From: Cirrosporium novae-zelandiae | Lineage: Eukaryota | Length of the DNA: 64,000 nucleotides | Assembly (NCBI GenBank): GCA_026023565.1 | Contig: JAPETS010000007.1 | Span: forward strand, 248,001-312,000 | Reading direction: 5' to 3' | Shown: piece after piece, positions 1,279 to 61,902 of the stretch | Layout of the letters: each line of letters starts with the position of its first letter | Position numbering within the stretch: position 1 is the first letter of the stretch | Position numbers and translations under genes: made by a program | Notes under the pieces: model-generated | What the model was told of the DNA's origin: nothing | The model's database searches: none | What the model saw: the letters and a program-made list of their open reading frames with translations, nothing else

Positions 1279-2414
1279 AGTTTACTAGGAGATTTCATAT
1301 TTAAAAATCATCTTGGATTTATATATATCCTCATGTACCTATGTGGTTTATATATGATTTCTGTGACGAATATGCCCAAAGTAAAATCATGATCTTACGG
1401 AATGGAAATAATCAAAAGAAAATTCCTTCCATGGCCTTTACTTTTTCGTTGTTTAGCTACTTAAAACTTCTCACGAGCATAGTTGTTGGTGATGGACCGG
1501 CGCCAAGACTAATGTTCCGCAACCTAACGGCTCTCAATCTTCAACTAAGACTAAGACTTGCTAAGCTGTAATAATCCGTCCACCATGGCCTTCAAGTTAG
1601 AACCATATTAAACTTGCCAGACTCTCCGGTTTCCTGATCCGTGGCTGTCAAAACCTTTTGCACCGTGTCAATGCTGTTGTAAAGCCTTGGCTTCATCCAA
1701 TTTTCCATTTTCCATTTGCCATCTTCCGTCTACCATATTCCATCTTCACATCTTTCATTCCCGCCCTCCCCCCCCATCTCTCTCTAACAAGCCCTCTCAA
1801 CTTGGTGGCTTCCAGAGACTACTTAGCTCGTCTATATCACGCCGAGTCTGATTAAGGCCCGTTAGCTGTCTTTGTGCGTCGTCCTTCCATCGTCCGGTCC
1901 GACTCCAAATCCCTTTCATCCCTTCTCTATGAGACCAAGGCCAATCTTGTGCGACTTTACAGAGCACTATCATCGCAAATACCTATAGTGCCATGCGCCG
2001 ATAACGACATCATCCTCGGAGTTTTCGGACAATTTATGAACGGTCTGCTATGCGACTCTGTTATTTTGAACGTTTGATCGAGGGAATAACCCGACTGACT
2101 GGATTTCCATTGACAGGCCCATTGTTGTACTCATACGAGTCTGGCAGCAAGACAGGGCTTCCACTCCACGTGCTGGCCGCGTCGTCATGATAACATTACG
2201 TCGAATTCCCCGTCAATATTTGTATATAATTACAGTGTGGGACAATCAATGAGTGGTCAATGGGCAAAGCGGTCAAGAGTACTACCTGAGATCGATTGGC
2301 AGGACCAGATGAAAGCGCGGATTTACACAAACTCTATTGGATTCACGAAGCAAACAAAGAATCAAGCGATTTCGTCAAGGTCGCACATCACCATCCGATC
2401 ACCCTCCTGGGAAA

Positions 2415-5400
2415 ATGGAGCACGATCAAAGGAACGGGAGCCATAAAAGGCTCTCGGGTCATCGACACATTCGGTCCAGTCATTCAGTCGAACGTAGGTC
2501 GAGCAAAAAGTCGAATTCTGAAGATAGACATGGAAGGATCTACCCTGACACCTTTCGAGGAGAAACTATTCGCACTGTGACACCCGACTCACCCTCACAC
2601 TCGCAGCTTAGCTCTGATGCACCAGCTTCTGAATCCGAAAATCCATCATCTTCCGCCACCACATCACCAAGGAGCGCGGCGAGGGGAGCGTCCTATGACC
2701 GCCCTCGGGAGCAGCCCTCCTCGTCACATCCACCACGTTCTGACAGCCACAACGCGATAAGGTTTGATAGCTTTTCGATGCGACCCAGAACAAAGACCCT
2801 TGATCAACAGAGATCGGCTTCCCCCACATTCGTCGCCAAGTCGAGACAAAGGGTTGGCTCTATGAACGTGGCCAGCTCTCCTGGTTCCTCTCAACCAGAG
2901 CAACAACAAGAAGATGGATCAAACTCAATAGGTTATCCGTCCATTGTCGCCTCTCCCCCTTTACCTCCTACCACTACTCGTCGACAACGCCTTGCCAAGG
3001 ATTTTGCCAGACAAGATTCCACATCCAAGCCGTCATCCATCTCGAGTAATTCGCCCATATCGCCTATCAAGATATCCGACCCGGGAAAGATACTTCAACT
3101 CATGAAAATAACATGCGGAAGAATGCACGGTATTCTTTCCTTCAAAGCCGCCGACAGCCATGTTTGGACTTCTGGATACTGCGCAATTAACGTTGGCAGT
3201 GGAAGCTTGATCTACCAAGCCAAGGGGGATCCTGCCTCGACGAAAACCTTGATATCCGATCTTCGGGGATGTCAAGTCCGAACCTTGACAGACACCGATA
3301 CCGACGGCACTTATTTAAATGTTTCAACTTATTCGTCCCAAACCGGAATTCATCTTCGTCCTCATGTCCCGGAGACATTTGACTCTTGGCTAGCTGCCTT
3401 ACTTTGCTGGCAGCCGATCCGGCCGAAGGGACATCAGAATAAGATGACCAAACCTCAATCTACAATAATGACGGAGCGCCGGAATCCGAAAAGTCGACGA
3501 AACTCTCAAGCCGTAGCCGCCCACAAAGAAAGTGGCACGACCATCATGAAGATGGGAAAGATGTTATTCTGGGACAAGCAATTTGGTTCCGGAATAGGAG
3601 TGCCTTTCGACTCGTCTGGACGAAGAGTTTCGACATATAAACAACAGCGCGCTTTATCTCCTTGCTGGCGGAAGGTGTCATGTACCCTTCATGAAAATGG
3701 ACATTTCAAGCTTTACTTTGAACCGGACAGTATTCTTATATCGACTATCCAGTTGTCTTCTTTATCTCGTTGCGCTATTCAAAAGTTGGATCCTTCGGTG
3801 CTGGAGGATGAATTCTGCATTGCTATATACCCCCAATACTCTGTTTCAACGTCGCCGCAGTCATTTTCACGCCCTGTCTATCTTTCCATGGAGTCAAGAG
3901 TTTTATTCGAGGTGTGGTATGTTTTGCTCAGAGCATTCACAGTTCCTGAACTATATGGCCCGAAACAAACTCCTATGAGCCCAGACACCGGCACTCTCCC
4001 GAATTTGCAAGCTTCATCTTCGAGTCCATCTGCCGATCTATTTCGTGTTGAGAGACAGCTTTCTATTAGAATAATCGAAGCTAGATTATACAGACGACAG
4101 GATTGGGGAAGCAGTGCCAATAGCCAAAAATCTTTTGATGGCAAGGAGCCTGCCCCTGGTGATTATTACGCCGAAGTTACTCTAGATGGGGAGGTAAGAG
4201 CGAAAACAGCCCTTAAAATTAATACCAGCACACCATTTTGGAGAGAAGATTATGAATTTCCAGATTTGCCACCTGTGACTTCGAGCTTCACTGTGGGTCT
4301 TAAAAAAAGAGAAGCTTCGCAAAGAGATTGGATCCTCACGGCTCACGGGCCATATGCATTGGGACAAGGTGATATGAGTCCCATGACCATCTTAGGCGAC
4401 ATCGAGATCTCATCTCATGATGCTACATTTGGAAAAGTTTCTCTTGAGATTGATGACTTAGAGCGAGGGCTTGACATCGAGAAATGGTGGCCTGTAATAG
4501 ATGATAACGGTGAGCAGATAGGCGAGCTGCTTATGAGAGTTAGAGCTGAAGAGTTTGTCATTCTCATGTCTGATGAATATCGGCCACTGTCCGAGCTTCT
4601 TCATCGATTTTCAAATGGTCTTACCGTGCAGCTAGGGCAAGTGATACCTACCGAATTGAATCGGCTGGCTCACCTGCTTGTCAATATATTTCAAGTATCC
4701 GGTAAGGCTAGCGAATGGATTATGGCGTTGGTTGAAGATGAAATCGATGGTCTACACAGGGAGACCTCCATCAATATTAATCGATTACGATTTAGTCGAA
4801 GGCTTCATTCCAACGAGTCTTATGAGACTGGACCAGAACGAGAGATATTTGTTCGCGAATTTGGAAGATCTGCGACTGCAGAGGCGAATTTACTTTTCCG
4901 GGGCAATTCTTTGCTAACCAAGGCTCTCGATTTACACATGCGCCGCCTTGGCAAGGAATATCTAGAGGAAACTCTCGGCGAACGGATACGGGATATTGAT
5001 GAGAGCGATCCAGAATGCGAAGTTGATCCAGTACGAGTGCGGAACAAAGAATACCTTGATAGGAATTGGCGTAACCTTATGGCCCTAACAAATGCCATTT
5101 GGAAGTCTATTAGCACCTCGGCAAGCCGATGTCCTCCAGAATTGAGACTGATCCTGAGACACATTCGTGCTTGTGCTGATGACCGCTATGGTGACTACTT
5201 GAGGACAGTTACCTACAGCAGCGTATCTGGCTTCCTTTTCCTTCGCTTTTTCTGTCCTGCTGTTCTAAACCCGAAATTGTTTGGATTGTTAAAAGGTAAG
5301 TTCTCTTTATGTAGATATATATGACGGTTTCTTACTGACTGGTGAAGATCATCCCCGTCCTCGAGCACAACGGACCCTCACGCTCATCGCCAAAACACTG

Positions 5401-6342
5401 CAAGGGCTTGCAAATCTGACTACTTTTGGCGGCAAAGAACCATGGATGGAACCAATGAACTCGTTCATCCAGTCACATCGTAATGAGTTCAAAAGTTTTA
5501 TCGACCAGATTTGTTCTATTCCTTCAGAACGGCCTATCTCAGCCATCCCCGCGTCATATGCCACCCCCATTGGTATTCTTGCACGTTTACCGCCAACGTC
5601 TCGCGAAGGCTTCCCTAGTCTCCCTTTTCTTATTGACCATGCTAGAAATTTTGCTGGAATTGTCCAGTTATGGCTTGAAATTATTAGCACTGAATTGTCC
5701 GAGCCTCAAAAAATGGACGGCGATCTTCTCACGTTCCATAAACGATGTGTTGAACTCCAGAAGCGTGCTAAAGACTGCCTTGCGAAAGCTGAGCAAGCTG
5801 AAAGACCATCGGTTGCGAATCTCGAGACGAGGTGGGAGGAAATGGTCGATCAATTGGAGCATGCCACGTTTTTTGAAACCGGCGATAAAAAATCTCCAGC
5901 CCAGCCTCAGTCTCCATACCAGCCTCAATCTCAATCTCAAATTCCCAATCAAGGGACCTTTTACAACAGCAATCCAGCAAGTCCCGTCCTTGAAAACCCT
6001 AAACAAAGAAGCAATCACCACTCAATGACTTTCGTCAACACTAAACAATATTCACCTAAAGAAGACAACACATCAGAGGAAACCAGCACCGGCTCTCCCT
6101 CAGACTACTGGCCTCGGCATCCCTTAGCCTTCCCCGATCGTAGACCCTCGGAACCTGTGTTCAAAGCGCCCTCTATGAGCTCATCTGATTATTCGTTAGA
6201 AAAAGAAACCTCTGAATTTCCCAAAAGCCCATCGAGCAGGGATGGAGGACAGAAAAGCAGATTCACAGATTTTATGCCAGGATTTAAGAAGAAAGGAAGA
6301 GACCGGGGAACTAGCGCGGAAGGGGATAGCAATAGATTATGA
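2415..6342 (+). CDS. BUD2: Ras GTPase-activating protein, Bud2/Cla2 type (PH-like, C2, RasGAP)
   Basis: First ATG at 2415. C2 segment (YYAEVTLDGEVRAKT..TPFWREDYEF) and RasGAP motifs LLFRGNSLLTK and SGFLFLRFFCPAVLNPKLFGL. Intron 5296-5347 (GTAAGT..CTGAC..AAG) restores LKDHPRPRAQRTLTLIAK and joins ORF 5446..6342. Confidence 0.9.
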
Positions 6343-7435
6343 CTATAAGACGGAATTGGGTGACAGGATTATACCTTTTTGCATCAATGTCATGATTTAT
6401 GTCGGAACAGACGAGGGAGTCAAGGTTGATGGTTCGCAGTTGTTTTTCTTATTATCGTGTTATCTAGCAGTTTACTACCTTCATTGCATATATTGGAGTG
6501 ATGGTGGCCCCGTTTATATGGAGAAGCTGGCCCAAGAATTGGAATGGGGAAAGGAAGAAAGTTATGTGTAATAATATCTAGCTCTTGGGTGCTGTCACAA
6601 TCAGGAGTCACATATCTTGCTACATGAAGAATGTACTTGTTAGTTTGAACTTGATTTAATAGGATGAATGGGGCCGCCTGGACGAAAAATTCCGGCTCGA
6701 CTCCAAGATCGACTAGTAGCTGGGGATCAGAAGTCATTAAATATCAACTATTTCATAATTCTTATGCATTTGGATTCTGCAGACAGTCGAGGTCGATCTC
6801 TAAGATACTATATGACGGCGCGTAGACGGGCAAGAATTAAATTAGAGCTGGCACTTTCTCTAGACAACCACAGCAACTAACAAACAATCAGCGGCAAGCA
6901 GTTAGTGACACCTTGCCAGGCACGCCAGGCTTCTCACCGCCCTCGGGCCGAGCCTTTCTGCCGTGCATTTATTCTCAGCCCGAAAACATCTTCCACTACT
7001 CCTTACTTCGGTGGCTGGGTTATAATTTGCTGACTGCTACTTTCTATATACCGTCACTCAATACACTCTTTTATAACATACGTTCTTGCTTGAGGTATGC
7101 TCTTTGGGTGCTCAATTGCTATAACCAACTGTTGACTTCTCGTTAAAATCCTAACCACGAAATCATCATTTCCTTTCTTTCACCAGAGTATCTCTTTTGA
7201 CTTATCTTTACTACTATGAAATTAGTGATTTCGCAGTCATCCTCTCAGCTATTTTAATTCACCATAGCTCTAGCGTCATCGCCCATCTCTCTTTATTCTG
7301 GCTTTGCTCTAGTCACGCTGAACATTTTCCTCATGCAATAGAATACGTTCTCGATATGCCACCAAGTATTACTATTATTTCTTTCATTGTATTAAGTTTG
7401 TTTATTTTGCTCACGTATTATCTACAGATTATGAT

Positions 7436-10400
7436 ATGGTTTGCCTTGACTCAGAATCACATGAACAAGATAGATCATCCCGAGAACCCTCTGCTACAAT
7501 CACTTCGTTCTCTTTGAACCGGATTGGCCGTGGTTTGGTGCTATCCGGTATCCAGCTGCCTGGATTAATGCGCCCAAGATCAATCTACCAAGGCTGGAAA
7601 CCTCGTTGGCTAGTAAGCAGTGAAATAGCCGCGTTATTTCAATTCTATGTGAGTGACTGGCATAACCTGAATGAAGCTTTTTTTTTATTAGAATGCTTGT
7701 ATGGAAGCCCACGCAGACGCTGACCAAAAATTGAAGGATAACTATTCTCCGAATTCGTCACGTCACAAGCATAGCTGCCAATTAAACCAGCTGGTATTTG
7801 CAGAGAATGCTACATTTGGTGGCGATGCATTCGTTTCATACGATTTAGTTGATTTTAGTATTTATCGACGCGAACTCGTATTCGACTCTCTTCATAATTT
7901 GCACACTAAACGAGGTTGTAATCGGTTTTTCTTTGATGGTGTACTAACTGACGGAAAAGACATCGTTTATGTTCAAAGGGTTCCCTTTGAGATACTCAAT
8001 ATTAGCTACAAAGTTGAAGAACATTCTGTGGGGGATGTTTGGGTTCAATCTGTTTGTGGGGAAAGTGTTCGCACTAATTTAGATAAGAGCAGAGACAGTC
8101 CGAATGGGGTATATTACCGATTGAAGTCTCCATCACCAGAATATCGCCGATACCATGAGGCGTTCCTTTGGCTAGCAAATTTCTCGAAATATCTCATGGA
8201 GTACCTCGAGTATCACGAAAAGGAAGATATTAGCCTCGCACATTTTAAAGCCAACTTTCATGATTGGATTGTTGGATCTCATGGCCAAGATGCGAACTTC
8301 CAAAAATGGCTCCACAGTTATCCTGGCTCCGATTTCCGACAAGTTGTGACTGCCCAAGCTGATTTTTTATACAATGAAGCATGGAACGCAGATGAGGGAA
8401 GTAACACGATTGATAAAAATTCAGTATGGATTGAAGCTCTTCCTGATGAGCGTGATCTTCGAAAAATCCCAATGCGGGAAGAGGAGCATAAAAAGACTGT
8501 TGTGACGCCATATGTTAAACATTGTTTCGATCAAATGTCTTGGAAAGAATATCTAGACTCAGACCTAGGAAAAAATGCTGGACATCTCCTATTCACATCC
8601 CCTATAGAGAATGGTCTTAATAGATACCTGACATCAACCGAAAGGGTTCGGAAGCTTCTAAAGCACAAACCTATTCAAGTTGAAGTTGGTGACGTTATTG
8701 GTATACGACAATATGATGGGTATTTGCGTTATGCGTATATTCAAAATGTGACAAAAAAAAGAAGGGTATCGAGTACCTAGTTATTTGGATCTACAGGCCT
8801 TCAAACACCCTCCTTCAAGGCGGAAAATATCCTTGGGTGAACGAACTGTTTCTTTCTGATCAATGCAACTGTGATGATTCAACTAAGTTCCTTGATATTG
8901 AAACCAGAGTCAATGTCAATTTTTTTGCTGAGCCAGAAATATCTGGTTCCGAATTCTTCCTCCGTCAGAAATATATTTCTGAAGATCCTCATTTTATGAC
9001 CTTACAGCAAAGATATCCCACGTGCAAACACTTGGGTTCAAGGTCAAAACCGGCGTGTAACAATCGCATAATTCGCGAAGGCGACACGTACGTGGCGAAT
9101 TTCCCAGGGGAGAGGTTACTTCAGCCAGTTGAGATCGTGAAAATAATTTCCTCGAAAATTCGAGTACGTCGATTTCTCCGGAGAAGGGTTGCTTTCAATA
9201 ATGAATACGCTCAACCAAATGAACTAGTTCATACAGAACAATGTGAGATTATCAACGCAGATCAGGTTACTGATAAGTGCTCTATTCGTTTATACTCGGA
9301 GGCAGACCTAAAACACAAGAGGATTCCATCCCCGTATAACAGGCATGGAAGTGGCAATTATTGGTTTATTGTTTACAAAACAGATGGATTTTGTCGCGGT
9401 TCGTTTTTAATCCCTTTGAGGCCAAATGAATTGACTTTAACTCAAGGGTTTAATCCTATGGCTAAGAAGGTGAAGTCAAAACTCTGCTGTTTAGACCTAT
9501 TCGCAGGCTGTGGCTGACTCGGTCATGGAGTGAAGGAAGCAGGTTGTACCAAAATTTCGACTGCAGTTGAATGGGACAAATATGCAATGCACTCTTACAG
9601 AGCAAACCTTCCTCGCCCAGAAAATGTGGATCTATTTCTAGGCTCTATCAACGATTATCATGCCCAGCTTATGAAAGATCGTTCTGGTTCATACAAAAAA
9701 GGGCGCATACATTGTATTTTAGCTGGATCACCCTGTCAGGGATATTCAAAGGCTAATAATCAAAAGGATAATGCACGTTCTCAGCGAAACAATTCGATGA
9801 TTGCTGCATTCTGCACCGCCGTGAATCTCCATCGACCACAATATGCGTTAATGGAGAACGTGGCTGATCTATCCCATGAACAAAAGAGAGAAACAACCCA
9901 ACCATTTAGGCAGCTGCTTTGTACATTAGTGGGAATGGGGTATCAACTACGAACTTTCTTAGCCGACGCTTGGAGTCATGGCAGCCCCCAGAGTCGGTGC
10001 CGAGTATTTATCTGGGCCACAGCTCCAGGGCTTATGCTTCCCGAGGCCCCTTTTTTAACTCATTCACATCCTCCCCGTATTCAAGGCCGCAAACTTGGTG
10101 TAACTCCTGGAAATATTCCTATTGGCAGAAGGCGTTTCCAGGAGAAATACTGTTTCGATTTTGTTTCAGCAGAGGCAGCTATTAAAGATCTCCCAGATAT
10201 CGGAGACGGCACCGTTGATTGCGTTCCATATCCAGATCACCGGACATCTGCGTACAGAAATCGGTGCCCACAGGAGTTTATTTCAGGCAGGCTACGAACC
10301 GATCTAAAAACGACCCTGAATAGAGAATTCTTAGAAAAAGAATTCCCTCAGACAGGTGCTTGGAGACGTGTTCAACCTCGTGACATTTTTCAAACTATCA

Positions 10401-10993
10401 TGACCAAATGTCGAGCAGCCGATCGTCGCGGCGTCACATGTATCCATCCATGGCAGCATCGTCTACTTACAATCCAGGAAGCACGAAGGGCCCAGAGTAT
10501 TCCAGACGATGTAGTTCTCGTTGGCTATCCCGCAGAGCAATGGAAGCAAGTCGGCAACGCTGTTGCAGGCACTGTTGCTTTAGCACTAGGGCTATGTTTG
10601 CGAGAGGCCTGGTTATCGAATTCCCAGGACGAGAAGGAACGTATCGGACCCCCTTCTCGCAAAAGCGTTGGTTCTAGAAACGAGCAGTTAGCCAAAAATA
10701 CTAAATTACATGAGCGGGCTCTGAAGAGGCGTAAAATGCTCGATCAGGGAGACAGCGACTCTTTTTCAGATTCCGATTACATTACAACTAAAGAATCTCT
10801 TCGTTCTCCGCTGCCCCCCAACCAGATCGAGCCGGACTTTGCGATGGCCATACAATGGACCAAGACAACTGTGGTTACCACTGGAATTGAAAGCGGGGCT
10901 CCAAGTAATCCAGACAAAGATGCGTTTAACGGCCACAGCAAGTCTTTGAGCTATTACTCGGGTAAAAAAGAGACACCTATTATTCTTGATTAG
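7436..10993 (+). pseudogene. dim-2: DIM-2-type (DNMT1 superfamily) C5-cytosine DNA methyltransferase, interrupted by a frameshift (A8 run, 8753-8760) and an in-frame TGA (9515-9517); pseudogene or recoded gene
   Basis: ORFs 7701..8780, 8837..9517 and 9530..10993 are collinear pieces of one protein. N-terminal DIM-2-like region (DFSIYR..FFFDGVL..YVQRVPF), BAH segments (IWIYRPSNT..YPWVNELFLSDQCNC; PNELVHT), motif I LDLFAGCG*LGHG, motif IV AGSPCQGYS, VI MENV, VIII PQSRCRVF, IX/X LTIQEARRAQ..QWKQVGNAV..LREAWL. Probable first exon 7436-7648 with intron 7649-7691. Confidence 0.85.
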
Positions 10994-11692
10994 AGGATAA
11001 AGCTAGAGAGGGTTAGAATGCTAGCAAGGATATACACGAATAGCATCATTTTTATATTCTCGATGTGATGCCGTGATAATGGAAGAAACAAGTTTTTGGA
11101 GCGGTGCTGGCGCCCTGCGATTACTTAGATAGAGGTGAGGTTTTTTACTTAGTAAAGTGTTGGAACCATAACCCGCACCTATTTAAAGCATTTGTGATAT
11201 CTGTTTCGAAGTCATTAGCTTATGATTATTCAGCACCAGGTTAGCTAGCAGTTGAGGTTGATTGTTAGAAATTACGAATAATTTATTTGGATAACTTTGA
11301 TTGTAAATAAAGTGTTGTATAGTCTACAGTGGTAATTAGTTATCTTTTGGAGAGCAAAGAGGGAAAGGTGTACAGTACATAGACTATCATGGATAGTCTC
11401 GGATTTAAGTTGGCATCTCCGGTACCACATTTTCTTTCCAGGGACGATTACTTTGGTAATTAGTCTACCTAGGTAATTATTACATTTAAAGTAATTACTT
11501 TAATCCAGATATTGACAAGAGTAAAGACGCGAACTCGACGTGACGGACTCGGAGTGTCTACAATATTATTGACAACAAATTTACCAAAGAGCGCATCCAC
11601 AATTTACCAACCACTTAGGAGGCTCAACTATCCTACCTCGTCCTAGCACAGCAATATAATTATTACTTAATTAGCTATACAACGGTTTGCAA

Positions 11693-12782
11693 ATGAACCC
11701 TCATATATCTGTTCCTCGACAGCATGGAGGATCTGGAACCTTTGGGAGTACGAACACGAGAGGAGATGGTCTTAAGATGCCGCAGTTCTTCAAGAGGCTA
11801 TTCAAGTTCCCCCAGATGGACTTTGAAATGGCAGTATGGGAGATGACCAACCTTATAATCTCTCCCAAGAAGGTATTCAGATCGATGTATTATCATGTGG
11901 GTTCTCGAGTTTTATTGGACACAGGCTGTCTCATGAAATACTAACGTTGAGTTGCAGAAACGTATGTTCTCTTCAAGAGTAGATCAAGTTTGACCTCCAA
12001 CACTCATAAATCTAGAAACCAAGAATACCTGGCATCGGCCCGATCCTTCCTTTACCTACCTTCTGTCACTGTTCCTCCTATTGACCTCACTTGCCTGGGG
12101 TCTTGCCTACACTAGATCCTTCGGTTCCATCGTACGACTCAGCTTCGTTTTCGTTTTCATCCATTTCCTCGCCCTATCCCTCATAATATCTACAATAGCC
12201 TATTTTTTGGTGGGAAAAGCTTTAGGGCCAGGAGTCTCTGGGTTTCCTGGCAGGAGAAGAACGCAAGGCCTATTTGCGAGGCCTGGGGAGATTGACCAAT
12301 TGGAATTTGGATATTGCTTTGATGTGAGGCAGTTTTGCTCTGCTCTGCGTTTTTTTGACTATGGCTGATTAGAATCAGGTTTCGATCAGAGCATTTTTCC
12401 CCATCTGGGTCTTCATATATGTAATCCAGTTCATATTGATGCCACTGGTTGCTGGAAACTTCTGGTGAGCATCCCCTCTGTGATACCTAAAACGCCACTA
12501 ATTGTTAAATAGGATATCACTCTTCGTCGGAAACTCGCTCTACCTCATAGCATTTGGTTATTATTTCGTAGTGACTTTCCTGGGGTACAATGGTGAGCAC
12601 TCTTGCTAGAGATAACTGGTGGTTAGACTGATCTTCTCAAAGCAATGCCTTTTCTTCATCATACGGAGCTACTTCTGTCGCCGATCGTGGTATTCGGCAT
12701 GCTTTGGCTCGTTAGCCTATTTGGGTATAATATCCCTAAACACATAGCTCCTGTGCTACTGCTTGGCTCCGGCCGCTCTTGA
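11693..12782 (+). CDS. GMH1: UNC-50/Gmh1 family Golgi membrane protein (6 exons, including a 4-nt micro-exon)
   Basis: RLFKFPQMDFEMAVWEM, spliced YYHKQTKNTWHRPDP, LEFGYCFDV, FLGYNAMPFLHHTELLL. Introns 11897-11957, 11962-12015, 12324-12378 and two more; stop TGA 12780-12782. Confidence 0.9.
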
Positions 12783-21213: not shown

Positions 21214-22008
21214 GATGATGATGATAGTGGTTAGGTGAGGGGTACTGTAAATTTGGGAGAACCAAGCGGCTGTAGGAAGAATTAGTTTGGTAAGTCACGA
21301 AGACGGTTTTGGGATAAAGCAAAGACAAGTTAATGAGACAGCTATATTGACGGGGTGGTAGTTCAAAATTCTTTGGAGTAATGAGGATGGTGAGATATGA
21401 GAAGCATAAACAGCAGTCCAGCAGTCCAGCAGTCCAACAGTGCCAATGTGCCTTTTGGGCTGCAAAAACCTCCCCACGCCCCCACCAACCCTTATCGGGA
21501 CTAGTACACCACTTAGCCCACCAAATCACAAATTCTCGATTTCTATTTCTACTGCTAGCTTTCTTTTCCTTCCTTCTTTCCTTTCCCTTCCTTTTTTTCT
21601 CCATCAAAACTGAACGATCCTCCAATATTCACTCTGGCTGTTCCAACAACTTTCAATGGATAGTCTTGGAGGGGAAACTGGAGGGCAGACTGATGCGAGA
21701 CGTTGACTTACCCCTTGACTTTGCGTGAAAAACTTTTCAACGTCGAAGAAGAGGAAATACATAACAACGAAACATTCATGTGTGGACACTTTGTAGTAAA
21801 TATAAATCTACCAGTGTTTTTTTTTTCATCTATCCGCCTATCACATCATCTACTATAGTGCTGGCTTGATGTACGATCATCCATCTCTTCATACGCTCGT
21901 TTCGTGAGTAATTACACTAGTCTATTGATTCGAGAATACAAATGGAGAATGAGAAAATCTTCCTCATGCGATCGTACAACAACCTTTAGAACCGTAAATA
22001 TTCTCAAT

Positions 22009-25496: not shown

Positions 25497-27506
25497 CTAC
25501 TCTGTTGACATTTTCTTACACCCGCCCTTGACATTCACTATTTCTCCTGCTGTCGCATTAAGATGGTCCCCGTCCAGTTCAATAAAATTGTTTATGCCCG
25601 CATCTGGCACTCTTATGATTCCACTACTTTCTTCCGGTGTACACCAACTGAGACTCCATGATCCCGTGCTGCTAACGTTCCAGTTTGCAGAGAACTTCCC
25701 AAGCGATGTCACGAACCCTCCTTCTACAGACTCGAGGTCTCCAAACTGTGGCTGAAGCGACCAGGTAACACCAGCAGGAGACGTAACCTCCAAGCCAAGA
25801 ATAAAATTTGTCAAAGCCGATGTAGGACCAGAACTCCATCCGTGAGAATGGGATATGTAACTAGCATCATAATAGTACCCTCTTGAGCTTCGATACCCAA
25901 ATGTGCCATTTTGGAGGTAGCCTTCGATAATTGTGGACTCTGTACTATTGGCGTTGTTGATAATCCAACCCCAGGTTGTGCGAAGGAGTGAGAGAGCACG
26001 AGTGGTGTTGCGTAAAGTGAAATGTGATTGGAGTTCGAAGCTAGAGATAAAGGGGGAGATATTTTCAGGTAGTTCAGGGGCGACGGGGCCAATTGGTGTC
26101 CAATTTTTAGTGAGCTTTTCTGAAATTGATTCAGCACGGGAGGAGCTGGTGACATTGAATAGGACTGCAAGACTATTTGCATCTTGTGGATGGAGAGTAG
26201 TGTTTGTGTCGTTATCTTTAAAGGCACCATACGATCCATCCCAGCACCTAGCATTAATTGCCGTCTTGAGCGAGACAGCTTGTAATGTCCAATTTGCACC
26301 CAAGGACTGGTCATCCATCCAACCAGCCATAACAGCGCCTGTTATCAGTGTATGATATAATATCATATTCGCCTCCGAGTTATGGAATCCTTGTTGCCAG
26401 CGAGCCCAGTCTCTTGTTCCTGTCACATTCATTAATCCCGAAGAGTCTACTTTCCCTAGAACGTAATTCATAGCCAACTGGTATCCCGCCCAGTTTTCTT
26501 CTAAAAAAGCCGTATTGTTGCTGTAGAGCATATAGTTATACGTTCCAACCATTGTCCACATATGATATGTGTCACTATTCTTCTGACTCAGTGGAGGACC
26601 GGACTCATCAAACGCGCCAGTTGTGAGATTTTGATAGTCATACATGACCTGCAAGGCATTCTTGACACTTTCTAAATCTCCAATACTTACGAACATACTC
26701 GGTACTGCAATCCCCATATCTCCGGGCCACACAGCTCGGTCACGCTTTGCGCCATCAACAATAATAGTATCGTCGAGTCCAAGGGTGGCATTATTAGCCC
26801 AACCATGCTTGAGGGTTGGAATTTGACGCCCCGTATTAACTGGTACCGCGTTCGTCTGCAGAGTATAGGCGCCAGCATACCAGATACGGTTGAGCAGTAA
26901 ATCAGAACTATGAAAATAACCTTTATACGCACGGAGGTTGGACCAGGTGGGCTGGAAGGAGAGCTCAAGAGATATGTCAGTGAGAGAAAGAGAGGCATTG
27001 GCGGTATCAGCCAGGAGGAAGACTGTTAAGTAACGAAATCCCCCTCGGAGGACCTTGTCAGGCATTGTATAGCTTCCATTGCCGGATGTAAATGCGCTAG
27101 TTAGATATCCATCACCCTGAGCGAATGCACCGTTGGAGGAGTCTGATAAATATCCAATCCAGTTTTTAGCTTCTGAGAAAGCGAGACCTATTTCGCCAGT
27201 ACCACTAGCGGTATAGGAAACGGTAACAATCCCGCCAACTTCAATGCCAAAATCATAAGTGATGAGTGACAGGTTTCCGGGAAGAGTAATAGTCTCAGGG
27301 TATGCTGTTTCATTCAGGTTCGGCCAAGATAGAATGGTCTTAGGCGAGACCACTCGCGTTGAAGGGGAATAGATGTTTGATTCCCAGGTTCCTGGGAATG
27401 TGGCATCGGTAGGACCATCACAGGTGACGTTTCTCCAACATTGAGCAAATGCGGGAACAGCAAACAAGGGAAGAAGGAAAAGGGCAAGTGATGAAATCGA
27501 GGCCAT
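25497..27506 (-). CDS. Secreted glycoside hydrolase family 78 (alpha-L-rhamnosidase-like)
   Basis: Signal peptide MASISSLALFLLPLFAVPAFA; GH78 motifs DGAKRDRAVWPGDM and SHSHGWSSGPT; many N-glycosylation sequons; intronless. Confidence 0.88.
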   Translation of the reverse strand: MASISSLALFLLPLFAVPAFAQCWRNVTCDGPTDATFPGTWESNIYSPSTRVVSPKTILSWPNLNETAYPETITLPGNLSLITYDFGIEVGGIVTVSYTASGTGEIGLAFSEAKNWIGYLSDSSNGAFAQGDGYLTSAFTSGNGSYTMPDKVLRGGFRYLTVFLLADTANASLSLTDISLELSFQPTWSNLRAYKGYFHSSDLLLNRIWYAGAYTLQTNAVPVNTGRQIPTLKHGWANNATLGLDDTIIVDGAKRDRAVWPGDMGIAVPSMFVSIGDLESVKNALQVMYDYQNLTTGAFDESGPPLSQKNSDTYHMWTMVGTYNYMLYSNNTAFLEENWAGYQLAMNYVLGKVDSSGLMNVTGTRDWARWQQGFHNSEANMILYHTLITGAVMAGWMDDQSLGANWTLQAVSLKTAINARCWDGSYGAFKDNDTNTTLHPQDANSLAVLFNVTSSSRAESISEKLTKNWTPIGPVAPELPENISPFISSFELQSHFTLRNTTRALSLLRTTWGWIINNANSTESTIIEGYLQNGTFGYRSSRGYYYDASYISHSHGWSSGPTSALTNFILGLEVTSPAGVTWSLQPQFGDLESVEGGFVTSLGKFSANWNVSSTGSWSLSWCTPEESSGIIRVPDAGINNFIELDGDHLNATAGEIVNVKGGCKKMSTE

Positions 27507-28709
27507 CAAGTATTCATAGAATCAACATAGCAGAAGAAAAACCTGTTGAATATGCTCTTCATAAGAACACCATAGAAATATTCTAATGTACTGTACTTAG
27601 GTACCTTTAAGTCATAGAGACATGATGTATTCGGTATAAAGGCAGACCGAAGCAAATATCAAAGCTGGCTGCTACAGCGTTAGCGGCCTTTTCTGAGAGG
27701 CATTTTGATCGTGGGGGTGGATGAGGGGAATAACGAGATCGATATTGTCCCTGGTTCATAATCTCAAATATGGTGATAGTGAATATTTTACAACCTAGGA
27801 GGGAAGTCAGCGGAGAAATTATTGTTTAAAGTACGGAAAACAAAAGGGGGTTGAACCGGTAGAGGTACTAATAAGCCTATCATCATACAGTAAATTCAAA
27901 GTGCGGGGGGTGGAAATGTGGAGATATTAGGAGAGTCAACCACCTGCCATGTTTTTCTTTAGTTACTATAGCTTTGAAGGAAATTGGAATTGTCGACGTA
28001 GAAACTAATTCATGAATTTATCCTCTAACCTTTAGTCACCCCAGTTTTGTCGTTATTGAATTGGATACGGGGCACCTGCCCCCGCATGATCTTCCGCATC
28101 CGAGCCGTATACACCGTGCTCAAACCCCAGAGTTAGCTTTATGGATAATATAGGTAGAGAGAAGGATCGAACCAAATCAAACACAATTGCAGTGGCATCG
28201 TTAAATATTTGCCCGAAACGCATACGTCTATAACCCATGGTATTTACATAAATACAAGTTCTTCCTGAGGCGAGGCCACCATCGAGAATGCTAAGTGGCG
28301 GTTTCCATGGAAGGAGCTCAATCATAGATGAACTAGCTCCCTTGTCGGAGAAGTCATGATTTGAGGGGTATACTTTCATTGTCTGCTGGTAGTATTCTGA
28401 CTGGTGAGAAATTGATAGATGAAATTTTATCTCCCAATCATAGATACATGAATTCAAAATACTGTGCATGGGCCTCGGCCTGCTCTTTGTCTAGCCGTAT
28501 AAAGTGCCCTGGCTCCCACGTCTAAGTGCTGGAAGATTGGCTTGGACAACGGAAAGAGAGGTAATTACTCGAGACAAAGACAGTCCTACATTCAATTATA
28601 CTTATCTCGGAACAGTTGTTGCCGGTTAAGTAGACTATACAATGTTTTACAAGGATCTATTGACCCAAAGTAGATCAGAAAAGGGAACACAGAACGCTTT
28701 ACCTGGTCT

Positions 28710-30496: not shown

Positions 30497-33400
30497 ATGG
30501 CTCCGGAGGTGGGAGGGCTTAATTTAGAAAATGATTCTATACAACGAGAAACGAAAGAGAAAGCGAAAATGGCAGAAGCAACAGAAGACGATAACCGGGA
30601 AGAGGACTCTGAGGAGAGCGACGAGGAAGAAGACGAAGAACCCAAGCTTAAGTACGCTCCGGTGACGAGAAGCCTGCTGCCCGTATATCGCAATGGCGAT
30701 GCTACGAGTACTTTTATTGTTGCGGGAGATAAAATGGTAAGCGCGTTCTTAGATATCCTGCAATGCAGCTGTCAAGAGGATTGTTTTGAATGCTAGCATA
30801 CTGACGACCTTTTAGGTAATGGGCACACATAATGGAAATATAGTGAGTAGCTCCCGGATCTCATGTCAAATTTCAGTGCTAAAGTACTCTAGCATGTTGT
30901 CTCACTCCCTACATTTCAATCATTACGGGTATATCATGCACATTCAGCAAGCGTTACAGCTGTGTCAATATCACCCTTCCCACCCCCGCTTCCAAATATT
31001 AGATCAGATGCTAGCTTTCGACGCCCTCTCGAACGTCGACAGACTCTCGAGCGTCGACAGACCGCTGTTAAGCCGACTTTGAACGGGACGGCTACTACGA
31101 CTTCACCGAGAAGCACCAGATCCCTACTACCACTGCCTCCCACACCATCAAATTCAATCTACATTGCAACTTCTTCAATAGACGGACTTGTATGTGTGAC
31201 GTCTTTGGTTGACGCGAAGGATTCGACGAAGAGGAACTTTTCACGTCCTATACAAACAGTAGCATTATCCCCAGAATACAAGAGTGACAGGACCTACTTG
31301 TCAGGAGGGTTAGCGGGACAACTTATTCTCACAGTTAGCGGCCAGCCTGGAACGAGTTCTATATCCACAGTCTCAGGAGGAGCTGGAGCAACAGCCTCTG
31401 GATGGCTTGGAGCTATTGGTCTCGGTCCAAATGTCGGGAAAGATACTGTTTTGCATTCCGGAGAGGGGGCTATAAGCATAATAAAATGGTCGTTATCAGG
31501 GAAATATGTAGTCTGGGTTAATGAGCAAGGTATCAAGATCATGCGCTCGGGTCTTTACCTGGAATCTGTTGATTCTGATTTTGCCTGGAAACGCATCTCC
31601 CATGTTGATCGGCCAGACCTTCCAGGATGGGAGGAAATGGCTAGTGTATGGAAAGCAAGAGCCGAATGGGTTGACGAGACCAATATTGAAGCAGACGACT
31701 TAGCCACAACGACAAATGGCACTCACAACGTTGGTGGACATTCTCCAGTAAGGTCCCAACGCAATTTGACAGAGAAACTGGTCGTTGGTTGGGGCGGCAC
31801 TATATGGATTCTGAAAATATACCCTGGCGGTGCTGGGACTGGTAAAGAGGTTGGTGAGAGGAAGATCGGCCACGCAGAACTTGTCACTATGTAAGCCTAC
31901 AAAGACTTATTTCTTTACCTCATGCTTACTTATGGATAGTTTACGGACAGATTGCATAATCTCCGGTGTATCATTATACTCCCAAAACGTGCTTGCCGTG
32001 CTTGCATATGTATCTCCAGATGACGAGGAGGCATCACAATCCGTTTCTCCGAGTCTCCGACGTCGGCATCACAGAGAAAATGCTGTACAACCTGAGTTGC
32101 GTCTCATCAATGTTGATACTAAGGAAGAAATAAGTGCAGATACTCTAACAGTCAGTCGATATGAAACTCTATCAGCGTCGGATTATCAGATGGGAGTATT
32201 ACCAGATATAGGAAATAAAAGTACGCCAACCACACAACGGGGTGCCCTTGGTGTTCTTGGAGAGGGGTTTTGGAACGCGGCCTTTAACCCAGCAAGTCTA
32301 TTTGGATCCAATGCAAGTATTCGAAGTAATGGGAGCGGCGATAAAGACCTAGGATCAAGTACAATGGTGTCCAGCACTATAGGATCTGGAAAAGCAGCGA
32401 TTTTGTCCTCCAGTCGATCGTCTGACCTGCCCCTAGTTGCAACATCAACGGGGATGAAGATTTTCATTCATAGCCCGTATGATTGCGTCATTGCTATGAA
32501 GCGAGATTTATCTGATCATCTGTCGTGGCTTGACAGTCATGAACGCTATGAGGAAGCCTGGGACTTGATTAATGAACACCCCGAAACTGTGATTGCGAGT
32601 ACTGATAACATACCCCTCAGTTCACCAACCACGCCAACAAGAGCCCAATCCAGCCTGGCCGAGTTTTTTGCTGATAACAGCTCTCAGTCTACATCGGTGG
32701 CCCACCGCGAAGCAAATTCTACCGCAGAGAAAGAGAAACGCCGAATTGGTGACCTTTGGGTTGAACAGTTAGTTAGAGCAAATGAGTGGGGGCACGCTGG
32801 TGCCGTCTGTGGCAAGGTGCTAGACACATCTACAAGGTGGGAACACTGGGTCTGGATTTTTGCGAAGAACAACAAGATTGAAGAGATAGCACCATATATC
32901 CCGACCACACAATTAAATCCCCCGCTGCCCTCCTTGGTATATGAGGTCGTATTAGGTCACTATGTGACTAGAAATAGGCGACGGCTTAAAGAACTCCTCG
33001 ACCAGTGGCCCCCAGAACTGTTCGATATCCCCAGCGTCACTTCTGCGATTGAAGCCCAACTGAAAACTGGAGGAAAAGGAAAAGATTCTGACTGGCGAAC
33101 TTTGACAGAATGCCTAGCAAAACTTTACTTTTCTGACGCTCGTTACCAAGATGCCTTGCGCTGCTACATACGCCTTCAGGATGCGGATACTGCAATGGAG
33201 CTTATTAGGGAACACCACCTTATTGGCGACATATCTGATGACATACCTGGCCTGATTCTCCTTCGTGTATCTGACGAACAAATGAAGACGGCGTCTCTCA
33301 AGGAGTTAGAAGATGCCACCAAAGAACCTATCAGCCTATTAGTGGAAGAGGCTCACCATGGTCTAGTCGGCCCTGAAACAGTTGTCTCGCAACTGAATAC

Positions 33401-34499
33401 TGCAGATCTCCCTCTTTTCCTTTTCTTTTACCTTCGGGGGCTCTGGACCGGTCCCCATCGGTCAACGCTATCCGAAGAAGGAACCATACCTACTGCTCGT
33501 TCCGAGAAGCTTGCCAATGAATCTAGATCCCTTATTGAACCCTTTAGTGATACTGCCATCACTTTATTTGCAGAATACGACCGTCCCCTACTGATGAACT
33601 TCCTTCAGTCATCTCAATCTTATACATTCGAAAAAGCATCTGCTGTCTGCGAGGGACGAAACTATATCCCGGAACTTGTATATCTATTATCCAAAATTGG
33701 ACAAACAAAGCAGGCCTTGCGACTCATCATCGATCGACTCCAAGATGTTTCGCAGGCCATTGCCTTTTGTAAGACACAAGATGACCCCGATCTTTGGAAT
33801 GATCTTCTAGAAGACAGTATGGATAAGCCGCGCTTTATTCGAGGTCTTTTAGAAGAAGTTGGTACAGCCATTGACCCTGCCACCCTTGTACGTCGTATAC
33901 CAGAAGGCCTTGAGATTGAAGGCTTACGGGAAGGTCTCAGTCGCATGATTCGCGAATTTGAGATTCAAGGTAGCATCAGCAGTGGTGTTGCAAAAGTACT
34001 GCAAAGTGAAGTCGCTGTTGGAATGAACGAATTACGAATGGGAAGGAGGAAGGGTATCAAGTTCCATATGGTTGAAGATGAATCTCCTCTAGCCGAAGAC
34101 ATAGAAACCCAGTCCCCCGAGCCACCTAATGAGGTTTCCAAACCTCTTAAGAGCACCCCTACCCCATCCGAGCAAGCAAAACCTGGTTATTGTCCTGGCT
34201 GTGACCTTCCATTTACAGAAAAAGAAACCCAGACACTTGTTGGCTTTGCTTGTCCTTTCAACCACGTCTGGCACCTATCTTGCCTGACCAACTTCAATAA
34301 GGGCAAAGGTAAAGGCCCGAACTCCGATGATGATACCCCCGAGCGGGAACTCAGGTTCGCTGTTGGTGATGAGGAAGGAAACTATGACTACTTTGCCAGA
34401 AGCGTTGGAGACAAAGTCACACATGCGAGGTTGCTAAGGGAGAGGATTGGAAAGGGATGTCCCTTGTGCGTACATAAGGATTTAGGGGAAGCATTCTGA
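30497..34499 (+). CDS. VPS41: HOPS subunit Vps41 (beta-propeller, clathrin repeat, RING-like C-terminus)
   Basis: EEPKLKY..GDATS..GTHNGNIH, ATSSIDG, RPIQTVALSP, DDPDLWNDLLEDSMDKPRFI, C-terminal Cys/His cluster. Introns 30736-30815, 30843-30892 and about 31891-31939. Confidence 0.92.
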
Positions 34500-37205: not shown

Positions 37206-39841
37206 ATGCATCTTCCCATTGGACTCACATTGACAGCCATGCTTGGTCTCAGCTTTGAAGCAGATCCATTTCGGTCTGGTGAGTGTTTATTGCTTAGGCC
37301 CCTTTCCATCTAAGCTTGATTCATAGTAGTCTACATGAAGGCATCGTTGACTAATTCTCTTTGCTTTACAGCTCATCAGGCTCCGAGACGGCAGATTCGT
37401 AAGTCCCATCTATCTATTTCGACCAGTGAACCTTCAATTGCACTAGCTTACCTTTGCAAATAGCAACCTCGTTCAGTAATTCTTCGGTCTTTGGAAGTAC
37501 AGGCGGAACTGTCATCTCGAATCGGCCAACCTTTTTTCTGCTGACTAATTCTGCGTCGAATACCAGCCTTTCTCGAAGTGTAGTCTCCTCGTATCTGGGA
37601 CTGGGATCTGTCACTCTATTCCTTACTGGTGATGTAACGACGCCGACGATGATATCTATTAGTCTCGGTTCAAACTCTACCATTCCTGCAAGCAATGACA
37701 CAGCTTCTACAACAGGGGTTATTGAGCCTAGCAATATGCTGTCTACTACATATTCAAAGAGTTTTTTGAGCTTTATGAATAGTACATCATTAAGTCAAAT
37801 ACCGACGTCAAGCAACCTTCTAAATGCCTCTGTTGGGAGCACAGCTTCAATCGCAGTTCTGCGCTCTACAGCCCCCAGCTTGCAGAGAAATAGTAGCTCA
37901 ACCATCCGGGCTAACGGATTGCAGGCAGCATCTACATCTAATGGGCATCCTTCGGTATTTAGTCCGACCAGCACCGCATCCAACACGTTTTCATCTGTTG
38001 TCTGGCCGCTTACTTTCGTATCGGCGTCTTATCTGGGCATCTCAGGGAGCTCTGAGGGCTCTTCAAGGACTTCATTCACTGTTCTCGTGCCAGGTAGCTC
38101 TGGAAACTGGTCTAAGGCTATGTTGCCTACGGGATCAAGCACGAATACGCCTTCCAGAATGCCCCTACTCACACCCTCCAGTATCTCGAGCACCAGCTTA
38201 CAAGGACACCCACCAAATACAACAAGGTTCTCTGAACAGTTAAGCTCATGGATTCCGTCTTCGAGCAGCATCTATGGCCTGCCTGCTATCACAACAAGTG
38301 TTTATTGGAACACAACTCTATCACCCCCAAGCACTCCTTCCACCTCAAGTATTACATTTAAGTTGTCTGGTGGTGGAATCTTACCGGTTCAAGCAACGGT
38401 TCAATTCTCAATACCGTCTATGGGCCCGTCTGCATTTTCATCCGCCCAGGCTTCGATGAGCCAACTATTGACAATTTCTTTACAGAACTTGAGTGTGCCG
38501 TTCTCAACGTCCTCAACCAGCTCGCAATTTGCGTCACAAATCCCCTGTGTGCTGCTAAGGCGGGCCATATCACCATTATTAGGGTGCATGGACGAAACTA
38601 CCATGCCATTAATCACAGCTTCTCCAGTTATGGAGGAAACGAGTTCGAGTGCTGCAACTTATTATCTAGCGATTTCATCAACGACAAATAGAAAGTATCT
38701 AAACTCCACGATAGCGATTACCGGATCATTCTCACCTTCTCCGTTGACCCAAGATACGTTTGCTAGTGTGCTTATGAACACTTTCTCTTCCTCAATAACT
38801 TCGGAGGTTTCTCTTGTAACAAGTACTTCGGCCATTAACAGGGGTTCCTCGATCATGAGCTTGTTGTCGATAAGTGTTTCTTCCTCGACCAATTCACTAC
38901 TTTCTCCGGCTACAAATGGAACTGAGTATACGACAACCCCTTCACTGTCATTCTCTTCGATGGTAGTTTCTTTAGGGGGGAGTTTTGTGCCTTCAGAGAC
39001 ACCTCCTAGAAGTTCACTAGCCTTATCTACTCCATACTTTATCCCACCAACGTTTCCATCAATTCTGCCAAATGTTACACTTCCGCTAGCTTCAACTTCA
39101 TCTTCAACTACGATGACCGGAACCACGATACTATCATTGGCGTCAGGAAATCTCACATTATCGACCGCGACATCTTTGTCCTCAGGTGGGGCGCCTAGAA
39201 TACCGACACTCTCACTATTGACCAATTCCCAGAGCAACAATACGACTATTAGCTCTACTAATTCCTCTATTGTTCTAGTCACTTCGAGTTTGTCCGCATC
39301 CGTACCTGTCGAAAGTTCGGTTAGTTATTCGTTGAGTGGTTCTTCAACAGCTCCTCCCGTACAGCTAAGTTCAGGATTGTACATTACGCCGCTACCTTTG
39401 CATACTGCTATCTCTCAGACTCTTAGTGCACCCTCTTTAGAATATCCAGAGTCTACTATTGAAACCGCTTCTTCACCAACCTTACCCTCTTTTGTGGTTT
39501 CATCGGTCAATAGCATGACCATTCGTGCAAGTAATTCAACCACTGCATTGATTCCATCTTCTATTCATGCAAGCCAGTCCCAAGCGGCCTCCTCAAGTCA
39601 AGTCGAAAGTTCAACTTCCTCGGGACTTCTAAACTTTTTGGCAGGTTCTAATGGCGGCTTACCTGCTGAAGGTTCTACTATTGTGACCTCAGTTTCAACG
39701 GGCAGTCCTAGTGACGTCACATTGACTGCTACACCTAGTGCATCTACCGTACCAACATCGCATCGAGCACGAGCTGCACATGCTGGCTTCGAGGCTTTGT
39801 GGTTAGTTTTAGGTGTTGCTCTAACTAGCTTGGTGTTGTGA
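37206..39841 (+). CDS. Large Ser/Thr-rich mucin-like surface protein, probably GPI-anchored
   Basis: ATG 37206 (MHLPIGLTLTAMLGLSF), two short introns (GTGAGT..TACAG, GTAAGT..AATAG) splicing in frame into the 795-aa S/T-rich ORF, and a hydrophobic C-terminus LWLVLGVALTSLVL. Confidence 0.68.
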
Positions 39842-55177: not shown

Positions 55178-56074
55178 TTACGTCATCATCTTCCCCCCGA
55201 TTTTTACTGCCCTCTTCACTTGCTCGTCTGTCGGATTTTGCCATTTAGCATCTAGGCTACTCATCAACTTTCGGACCAACTCCTTCTCATACTCTTCTGC
55301 AGACTTCTTCCTGCGCCTCCAATACATATCAGTCGGGGCGCGCCAAATTGAGTCTACAATCTCCACATTACTGATCCGCTGCAGGGTTTCGAACGGTTTT
55401 AATGCTTCCCACCATGGTGCGGGCGACCAATTGTCGATAGCAGGGGGTATAATGTGGATCTTTAGAGTATCAAGGTTATGCCCAACAGACAACATTTTCG
55501 CGAAAACGTGGGCCACCATTCCATTCTCGCCATTCGTCCTAGCTCGCGCTATAGCTTTCATGACCAATTGCACGAAGTTTTCATCGTAAGCCCGTATTTG
55601 GCTATCTCCGAAGGAAGGCCAAACGGGTAAATTTAGTGATGATTCGTTCAAGTCTTTCGCTACCTTGGAATGTTTACGAAGTGTCATGTGCAACGAACAA
55701 CTTTTCATTGTGGTAAGATTGGCAAAAAGGCCAGTATAGAAAGGACTCTCTAAATCCACTATAAAGGCGAAGTGATTTTGGGAGTAGAAGATTGAACTTG
55801 CTTCTTGATATATTCGATGGTTGACGAGAAATATGGCAGGGCAGGAATGAGGAACGCTAGATTCACATTCATGGTCGTTATAAGCTGCAAATAAGGCCGA
55901 GTTATAACGCCGGTGTATACCAAGGTCGAGTCGAGGAGGAGGAGTGATCGCAAACCGATCCTCATGACGTTGGGGTGGTTTGATAAGAATATAAGAATAT
56001 ATTTTATTTCGGATTTCTCCTGGTAAGCTATCGAAGGATAGCGGAATTGACTCATTTATCGCAAGTGAAGCCAT
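55178..56074 (-). CDS. Fungal F-box-like-motif hypothetical protein
   Basis: N-terminal SFDSLPGEIRNKIYSYIL and PAIFLVNHRIYQEASSIFYSQNHF motifs. First ATG at 56074; intronless. Confidence 0.7.
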   Translation of the reverse strand: MASLAINESIPLSFDSLPGEIRNKIYSYILIKPPQRHEDRFAITPPPRLDLGIHRRYNSALFAAYNDHECESSVPHSCPAIFLVNHRIYQEASSIFYSQNHFAFIVDLESPFYTGLFANLTTMKSCSLHMTLRKHSKVAKDLNESSLNLPVWPSFGDSQIRAYDENFVQLVMKAIARARTNGENGMVAHVFAKMLSVGHNLDTLKIHIIPPAIDNWSPAPWWEALKPFETLQRISNVEIVDSIWRAPTDMYWRRRKKSAEEYEKELVRKLMSSLDAKWQNPTDEQVKRAVKIGGKMMT

Positions 56075-57076
56075 GAGAGGAGTAGAGAAAACCACGGAAT
56101 AAAGAATTTACTAAGACGATATTTTCGAATGAGATTTTAATGCTTTTTTCACTTCTCTATGGTGTTCGGGGAGGTAAGAGACAGTTGTATCTTAAAGCCT
56201 AGACATTATACGTAGTCGAACAACATTCTGATTCAGAGTGACCAAGGTAGCTAACATGAGGGAGAGTGCTAGGCAGGAGAGATTAGATGATGGAATAGTG
56301 AAATAAGTGAATCAGGTACTGATCAAGAAGTACTGTTTGAAGAAAAATAATTTCGACTTGGTTATGTGTTTTTAGAGGGGGGCTAAATAAGTTGAAGAAG
56401 CTGAAACGTCTTGAAGTTGTCTAAAGGAGTCCCGAGGAACTGGTGTTTATCAGCTGCAGCCTAAGGATCCGCAAATCCTTGTTCCTTGAATTGCCACATC
56501 AACATCAACAACAATATAAACATGAGTATGGAGGAAGCAATACCTTGTGGGTTGTCGCCTTCGACAAGTTAGCAGTGTAGAAGTTAGTTCGTCACTGGAG
56601 ATACCAGAGGGGTCCTCAAGACCATGCTCCTGATGTTTGGAGAATAATAGAGCATCGAGGAATGAAGAAGAAATTGACACAGAACAGATGGACCTTCTAT
56701 GAAGACTATGTAAATGCTACCACTGTCATTTCTTTTAGTTATACCACAGTAAACACCTACTGATAGTTGATGATGGACGCAAGATACCTCGTTATTCGTA
56801 TCTGGTGGATGGAGAAGGCGGATGCAAACTGAGCAAACTACTTCTCAACATCGCGTTCTCAAAAGTTTGGCGCGTTTAGTTGGAGCTCAAATCCCAAGTT
56901 TGGGGTGATCAAAATAATTTCGAGTCGGCGTCTCTCTCCGGAGTACGACCTTGAATTCTCTAATGGCCCTAGGTGTCCATACAGTGCAATGATAGCTTCC
57001 AAAGGCTTCCAACTCCACAAATACCGTTACTGAAGCTAGCTGTTTGTTTCAACTTTTGTCGTCGAAAGAGTATGCG

Positions 57077-61789: not shown

Positions 61790-61902
61790 TACAGTAAGGA
61801 CTCATAAAACATATATGTTACGTTGTGTTGTGTTGTGTTGGACTTTCAAGTTATTATTATTATAATATAAGAATATAAATCCCCCCTTATATATATAACA
61901 TT

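Follow-up and report, generated by a model that had tools for sequence, protein, structure and literature searches.

The dim-2 locus of Cirrosporium novae-zelandiae, known from a metagenome-assembled genome (MAG), is probably a real and fairly recent pseudogene. It lies in a 64,000-nucleotide window (the whole stretch of DNA analysed here: contig JAPETS010000007.1 of assembly GCA_026023565.1, positions 248,001 to 312,000; coordinates below count from its first letter), in which the listing of open reading frames (ORFs) places three consecutive long stop-to-stop ORFs on the plus strand at 7692-10993. A first-pass annotation made from the letters alone had joined these ORFs into a single Dim-2-like protein with two lesions, a reading with which both the coordinates and the Pfam domains agree; it had also reported no additional stops over ~3.5 kb, and the frames of ORF1, ORF2 and ORF3 are indeed otherwise open, with no further stops across ~3.3 kb. 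Its product length of ~1170 aa should be nearer 1,160 aa, because a real 79-nt intron at 7613-7691 had been overlooked. The first lesion is a frameshift at a run of eight adenines (A8) within the overlap of ORF1 and ORF2, and the second is an in-frame TGA between ORF2 and ORF3. Since the frameshift splits the BAH domain and the TGA cuts motif I, ordinary translation would stop after about 420 residues, short of the catalytic domain. The placement of both lesions at conserved residues, their agreement with a second assembly and an excess of departures from the family consensus support the pseudogene reading, and the recent pseudogenisation favoured at first pass is borne out by lesions that fall in conserved coding sequence, are reproduced by that second assembly and include one stop per 3.3 kb. 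We infer from the sequence that the locus has lost its function, and any effect on 5-methylcytosine (5mC) in C. novae-zelandiae would be a putative consequence of that loss; accordingly, from the 'very recent loss of DNA methylation' proposed at first pass we retain the inactivation of the gene, whereas the loss of methylation exceeds the data, as a second copy or other methyltransferases may exist elsewhere in the genome. The features of the locus, including two introns of the deposited gene model (KAI9738243.1) that we regard as false, are as follows.

7436-7612, plus strand: 5' coding exon of the dim-2 gene, with the first ATG of the exon at 7436.
7613-7691, plus strand: probable genuine intron of 79 nt (GTAAGC...TTAG), from exon mapping of the deposited protein.
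7692-8780, plus strand: ORF1, 362 aa, in a frame one base ahead of that of ORF2 and ORF3.
7692-8756, plus strand: coding part 5' of the frameshift, with DUF7893 and the first BAH strands (ORFs, Pfam, alignment).
8717-9517, plus strand: ORF2, 266 aa, in the same frame as ORF3.
8721-8797, plus strand: false 77-nt 'intron' of the deposited model, which holds the frameshift and deletes 26 residues of the conserved BAH core.
8753-8760, plus strand: A8 run, the frameshift site; the downstream homologous frame needs a -1 shift, one base being missing relative to an open frame.
8759-9514, plus strand: coding part between the lesions, with the remaining BAH domain, a linker and the beginning of motif I (ORFs, Pfam, alignment).
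9335-9601, plus strand: false 267-nt 'intron' of the deposited model, which holds the TGA and deletes 89 codons including motif I.
9515-9517, plus strand: in-frame TGA inside motif I (LDLFAGCG*LGHG, the asterisk marking the stop; sequence and 71-sequence alignment).
9518-10993, plus strand: ORF3, 491 aa, separated from ORF2 by the TGA alone; C5-methyltransferase catalytic domain (PCQ, ENV, QSRCR and GNAV kept), C-terminal tail and terminal stop (ORF3, Pfam, alignment).

The locus belongs by descent to the Dim-2 subgroup of the DNMT1 family but, judging from its reading frames, would not encode a working member. Pfam places DUF7893 (PF25423) in ORF1 (E 2.2e-26), BAH (PF01426) in ORF2 (E 4.8e-10, profile positions 31-89 of 121), N-terminal to the catalytic domain, and DNA_methylase (PF00145) in ORF3 (E 1.1e-33, profile positions 15-318 of 324). 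From the N-terminus, the domains are DUF7893, BAH and C5-methylase, and the first BAH strands lie in ORF1, so that the domain is split by the frameshift. No match to the replication-foci domain (RFD) was found in ORF1, ORF2 or ORF3 at E <=0.01; according to PMC7862722, absence of the RFD separates Dim-2, the Ascomycota member of the DNMT1 family, from DNMT1/Masc2, and the sets of methyltransferases retained vary widely among fungi. Protein searches used the read-through of ORF2 and ORF3 with X at the TGA, in which PCQ, ENV, QSRCR and GNAV are all found, and we considered 175 listed matches, comprising 55 of 55 in a 'longer' set and 120 of 193 in a 'near' set. DUF7893 and DNA_methylase occur together in all 55 'longer' matches and in most of the 120 listed 'near' ones, and 12 of the 175 carry the name Dim-2 as given by the source. 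The best matches (E about 1e-140) are Dim-2 or cytosine-methyltransferase proteins from Lecanoromycetes, Eurotiomycetes, Lichinomycetes and other classes of Pezizomycotina. Identity to the 175 listed homologues ranges from 31 to 42%, the nearest being about 40-42% identical, the locus's own deposited protein aside; that protein, a model of the present locus, is the sole Cirrosporium entry among them. The best solved chain, 9bap_A (E 5.6e-116), spans the BAH and catalytic domains and is, together with 9baq_A, presumably the Neurospora crassa enzyme. When JGI metagenome contigs were scanned with six peptide patterns, 43 pattern matches came up, and tblastn confirmed none of them as a relative.

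We aligned the read-through, with X at both breaks, with 70 of these homologues (42 'near' and 28 'longer', drawn from the 175 listed). Both lesions interrupt sequence that the family conserves: YAYIQ, encoded in the upstream frame before the A8 run, aligns with a conserved BAH strand, and VIWIYRPS, encoded in the downstream frame after it, aligns with the next one. The column of the TGA holds N in 59, S in 10 and T in 1 of the 70 homologues, and N in 9bap_A; this second lesion is a substitution, unlike the change of homopolymer length at A8. The damage extends beyond the two breaks. Motif I reads GCG*LGHGVKEAG here, where the family consensus is GGGNFGRGLEEGG, and across 11 near-invariant columns of the motif I window (consensus GGGFRGLEEGG, here GCGLHGVKEAG) 6 are changed, compared with at most 2 in any of the 70 homologues. 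The first-pass annotation had called the catalytic motifs intact, which is correct for motifs IV, VI, VIII and X and fails for motif I, with the stop inside it and these 6 of 11 near-invariant columns altered. In the BAH domain, a short segment that includes a W-K pair is a gap here (window 8690-8720) and is found in 45 of 45 homologues displayed, and the conserved W ahead of YAYVQ is R in the Cirrosporium gene.

The deposited protein KAI9738243.1 ('MAG: DNA methyltransferase Dim-2 [Cirrosporium novae-zelandiae]', 1,060 aa) presents the same locus as an intact gene. Every exon of the model is 100% identical to the window; it covers 7356-10990 on the plus strand, and exon mapping shows that its exons end at 8720 and 9334 and resume at 8798 and 9602, besides splicing out the 79-nt intron at 7613-7691, whose polypyrimidine end is the T9 run at 7678. 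With exons shared between model and locus, the model thus looks intact through the removal of two stretches, of 77 nt and 267 nt, that are conserved as coding sequence. Because 8721-8797 and 9335-9601 align with conserved residues of the 70 homologues, they are best seen as former coding sequence and the deposited model as a gene-caller workaround; introns were therefore rejected as an account of either the frame change or the stop. At 8720-8761, a GT...AG segment of 42 nt was also considered as an intron, and its length is a multiple of three, which leaves the frame unchanged. As predicted from the sequence, the product of KAI9738243.1 would be without the BAH core and the cofactor-binding loop. 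At its 5' end, the model starts upstream, at 7356, by way of a doubtful first 'intron' of ~35 nt (7395-7429), and its residue 14 finds no place when exons are simply matched to the window; translation may really begin at the ATG at 7436, as assumed at first pass.

The lesions are a feature of the sequenced DNA and do not stem from the assembler. One public run contains the stretch (122 of 122 sampled words found) and is probably the source of the assembly. A Logan contig of that run, 84,566 nt long, matches 6500-12000 of the window with 0 substitutions and 0 gaps at a mean word depth of 358.9, and this exact reproduction by a second assembler at high depth makes an assembler error unlikely. 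Elsewhere in the window, 15 further ORFs of at least 300 aa are all open, although they contain six A7 runs and one T7 run, or ten 7-base runs when C7 and G7 are counted too; the neighbouring ORFs that carry such runs, 333 to 1,004 aa in length, are uninterrupted. This agrees with the first-pass observation that neighbouring long genes, A7-bearing ones included, remain whole. Pfam matches at E <=1e-5 occur in 11 of the 15 ORFs, mostly to housekeeping families, and the long housekeeping genes of the window are complete under the standard genetic code.

Decay is also visible at positions that the family holds nearly constant. We counted as departures the alignment columns in which a gene differs from the residue common to the 70 homologues, at three thresholds of conservation. 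Among the 83 columns conserved at >=98%, the Cirrosporium gene departs at 9 (homologues: median 0, maximum 6); among the 185 conserved at >=90%, it departs at 32 (median 6, maximum 23); and among the 261 conserved at >=80%, it departs at 59 (median 16, maximum 45). It thus tops all 71 sequences, including some high-departure homologues that may be poor gene models themselves. The departures are spread along the whole gene and are densest at motif I; for the columns conserved at >=90% they affect 5 of 31 columns before the frameshift, 5 of 45 between the lesions, 5 of 12 in the 31 residues after the stop and 17 of 97 in the remainder. A FastTree phylogeny of 975 trimmed columns places the gene inside the family with weak support (0.5) and gives it the longest terminal branch of all (1.32, against a median of 0.19).

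The single in-frame stop gives a rough date for the loss. Of all possible one-base changes across the 3,294 coding nt, enumerated with transitions weighted twofold, 4.4% create a stop, so that the one observed stop corresponds to ~23 neutral substitutions, or 0.7% per site, with a Poisson 95% interval of 0.02-3.9%; this estimate is drawn from a single event count and ignores indels. Set against the age of the lineage, the inactivation therefore appears young, with a neutral divergence since then of roughly 0.7% and no more than about 4%. Neutral change on that scale would be expected to alter about 3 of the 185 conserved columns, with about 16 as the upper limit, while the observed excess over the median is 26. 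These figures suggest two phases, a long period of fast or relaxed evolution with an open frame followed by a recent knockout. Under this scenario, conserved sites, those of motif I above all, would have drifted over the longer earlier period; a one-base deficit in the A8 run would then have split the BAH domain, and the TGA would have interrupted the S-adenosylmethionine-binding motif I. Repeat-induced point mutation (RIP) was considered as the cause of the loss and rejected: the locus carries no RIP signature, its dinucleotide ratios (TpA/ApT 0.68; (CpA+TpG)/(ApC+GpT) 1.32) lying within the range of six neighbouring genes, and by reasoning we judge the TGA atypical as a RIP product.

Several observations weigh against a recent pseudogene, or at least against some of the evidence for it. 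Apart from the two lesions the frame stays open over 3.3 kb, and motifs IV, VI, VIII and X survive, which indicates selection until recently, and some residual use of the locus is possible on this sequence pattern. The length from midpoint root to tip is raised only moderately (1.64, against a median of 1.31); as the only sampled member of its class, the gene is partly expected to have a long terminal branch, and the isolation of the lineage could partly account for the excess of departures. The closest relative in the collections searched is about 41% identical, too distant for an estimate of dN/dS. The Logan contig is the output of a second assembler on probably the same reads, and is thus not an independent sample; moreover, contigs drop minority variants, and an intact allele present in a minority of nuclei or cells could escape. 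A systematic homopolymer error at A8 is conceivable but unlikely, the long, high-depth k-mer contig speaking against it.

These points bear on the competing explanations to different extents. Were the window simply wrong, with nine adenines and a sense codon in a truly intact gene, the lesions would be artefacts of sequencing or assembly. Homopolymer length errors are common, the genome is a MAG, and the sole run containing the stretch is probably its own source. We nonetheless consider an error very unlikely, given the second assembler's identity over 5.5 kb at a word depth of about 359, the second lesion, which is a substitution and not a homopolymer change, the genes with A7, T7, C7 and G7 runs that are open, and the further degenerative changes in motif I and the BAH domain, which go beyond any single error. 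A decaying duplicate, that is, a dead paralogue here with an intact dim-2 elsewhere that sustains DNA methylation, would suit the strongly diverged motif I, as expected of a redundant copy, and MAGs are often incomplete. Such a duplicate is improbable all the same: an annotated intact paralogue should rank among the top matches, and the 175 listed matches hold no second Cirrosporium protein; the locus sits among single-copy housekeeping genes; and it bears no RIP signature, whereas RIP befell the duplicated dim-2 of Zymoseptoria in the account of PMC8016269.

Two further explanations would let the locus produce a protein in spite of its lesions. If it were spliced as annotated, or similarly, the result would be a catalytically dead Dim-2 relic of ~1,060 aa that might serve as a scaffold or reader; the two segments spliced out are each bounded by GT...AG, their removal yields an open frame, and the rest of the frame is open. 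We regard this as highly improbable, because both 'introns' encode residues conserved across the 70 homologues, the 267-nt one exceeds the convincing 79-nt intron more than threefold in length, the 5' sites GTATTT and GTATAA look weaker than GTAAGC with respect to the splice-site consensus, and gene callers routinely bridge lesions with introns of this kind. Recoding, the alternative offered at first pass, would have the ribosome, or transcription, slip by -1 at the A run and the UGA be read through, yielding a little full-length enzyme. The upstream frame does contain A_AAA_AAA, a classical -1 slippery heptamer, -1 is the required shift, and the stop is a UGA followed by C, a comparatively leaky context. 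Apart from this formally suitable heptamer, however, the proposal finds no support. No stimulatory RNA structure was found in the 126 nt from the A run onward, where the minimum free energy of -20.9 kcal/mol compares with a mean of -24.3 over 200 shuffles (z = +1.02) and 169 of the 200 shuffles equal or surpass it in folding; the low efficiencies of two independent events would have to be multiplied; and a residue inserted at the UGA would differ from the N, S or T found at the stop column in 70 of 70 homologues, as near-cognate UGA decoding inserts other residues. Recoding is thus exceedingly improbable. Taken more broadly, a locus that is still alive, whether through slippage and UGA-C read-through or through an intact allele in a minority of nuclei, is scarcely to be expected; should it be true, DNA methylation would not be lost, and bypass of the lesions would tune or switch it.

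The families matched by the neighbouring ORFs are RasGAP, WKF, IF-2, a rhamnosidase-like domain, DUF155, Vps41 (two ORFs), SURF6, RINT1/TIP1, ATP-dependent DNA ligase and POM152. No Pfam family was matched at E <=1e-5 by the ORFs at 37430-39838 (plus strand, 803 aa), 55181-56107 (minus strand, 309 aa), 61879-63135 (plus strand, 419 aa) and 5293-6339 (plus strand, 349 aa). Long ORFs overlap in different frames at two places on the plus strand, the RasGAP ORF at 2313-5321 with 5293-6339, and the Vps41 ORF at 30893-31891 with 31815-34496; ordinary introns at the junctions are the most likely explanation for both. The minus-strand ORF at 25500-27521 (674 aa) matches a bacterial alpha-L-rhamnosidase six-hairpin glycosidase domain (E 7e-11) amid the housekeeping genes. 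The longest homopolymers of the window, T10 at 21817, A12 at 63846 and the T9 at 7678, all lie outside long ORFs.

Our reading of the locus as a recent pseudogene corrects a public annotation, in that the 'DNA methyltransferase Dim-2' entry is a construct concealing a frameshift and a stop, and surveys of fungal methyltransferases based on proteomes would wrongly score C. novae-zelandiae as Dim-2-positive. If there is no second copy, the only sequenced member of Xylobotryomycetes is predicted to be without Dim-2-dependent 5mC, and because the loss appears young, its repeats might still show mutations left by earlier methylation. Xylobotryum is named as the sister genus in PMC6712537, and full-text searches on the species name yielded only work on taxonomy and phylogeny. 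Fungi commonly lose DNA methyltransferases, and for dim2 a recent loss is known in Zymoseptoria; the present locus adds one further case and says little on mechanism.

Compared with the Dim-2 proteins of other Pezizomycotina, the locus shares the DUF7893-BAH-C5-methylase order, the lack of an RFD match and the retention of motifs IV, VI, VIII and X, and differs from them in a frame broken twice, a diverged motif I, a missing short BAH segment and the most departures of the 71 sequences. The closest parallel, already drawn at first pass, is the dim2 of Zymoseptoria tritici, which, according to PMC8016269, was inactivated once the gene had been amplified and subjected to RIP, and shows many C:G to T:A changes as well as multiple copies, while intact alleles persist in some isolates. 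The two cases are alike in their premature stops and frameshifts, in belonging to lineages with relatives that retain an intact gene, and in an operational definition of 'non-functional' (PMC8016269). The parallel holds for an inactivated dim2 and is otherwise loose, since the loss in Zymoseptoria proceeded through amplification and RIP, whereas the Cirrosporium gene carries two isolated lesions, shows no RIP signature and has no extra copies among the listed matches.

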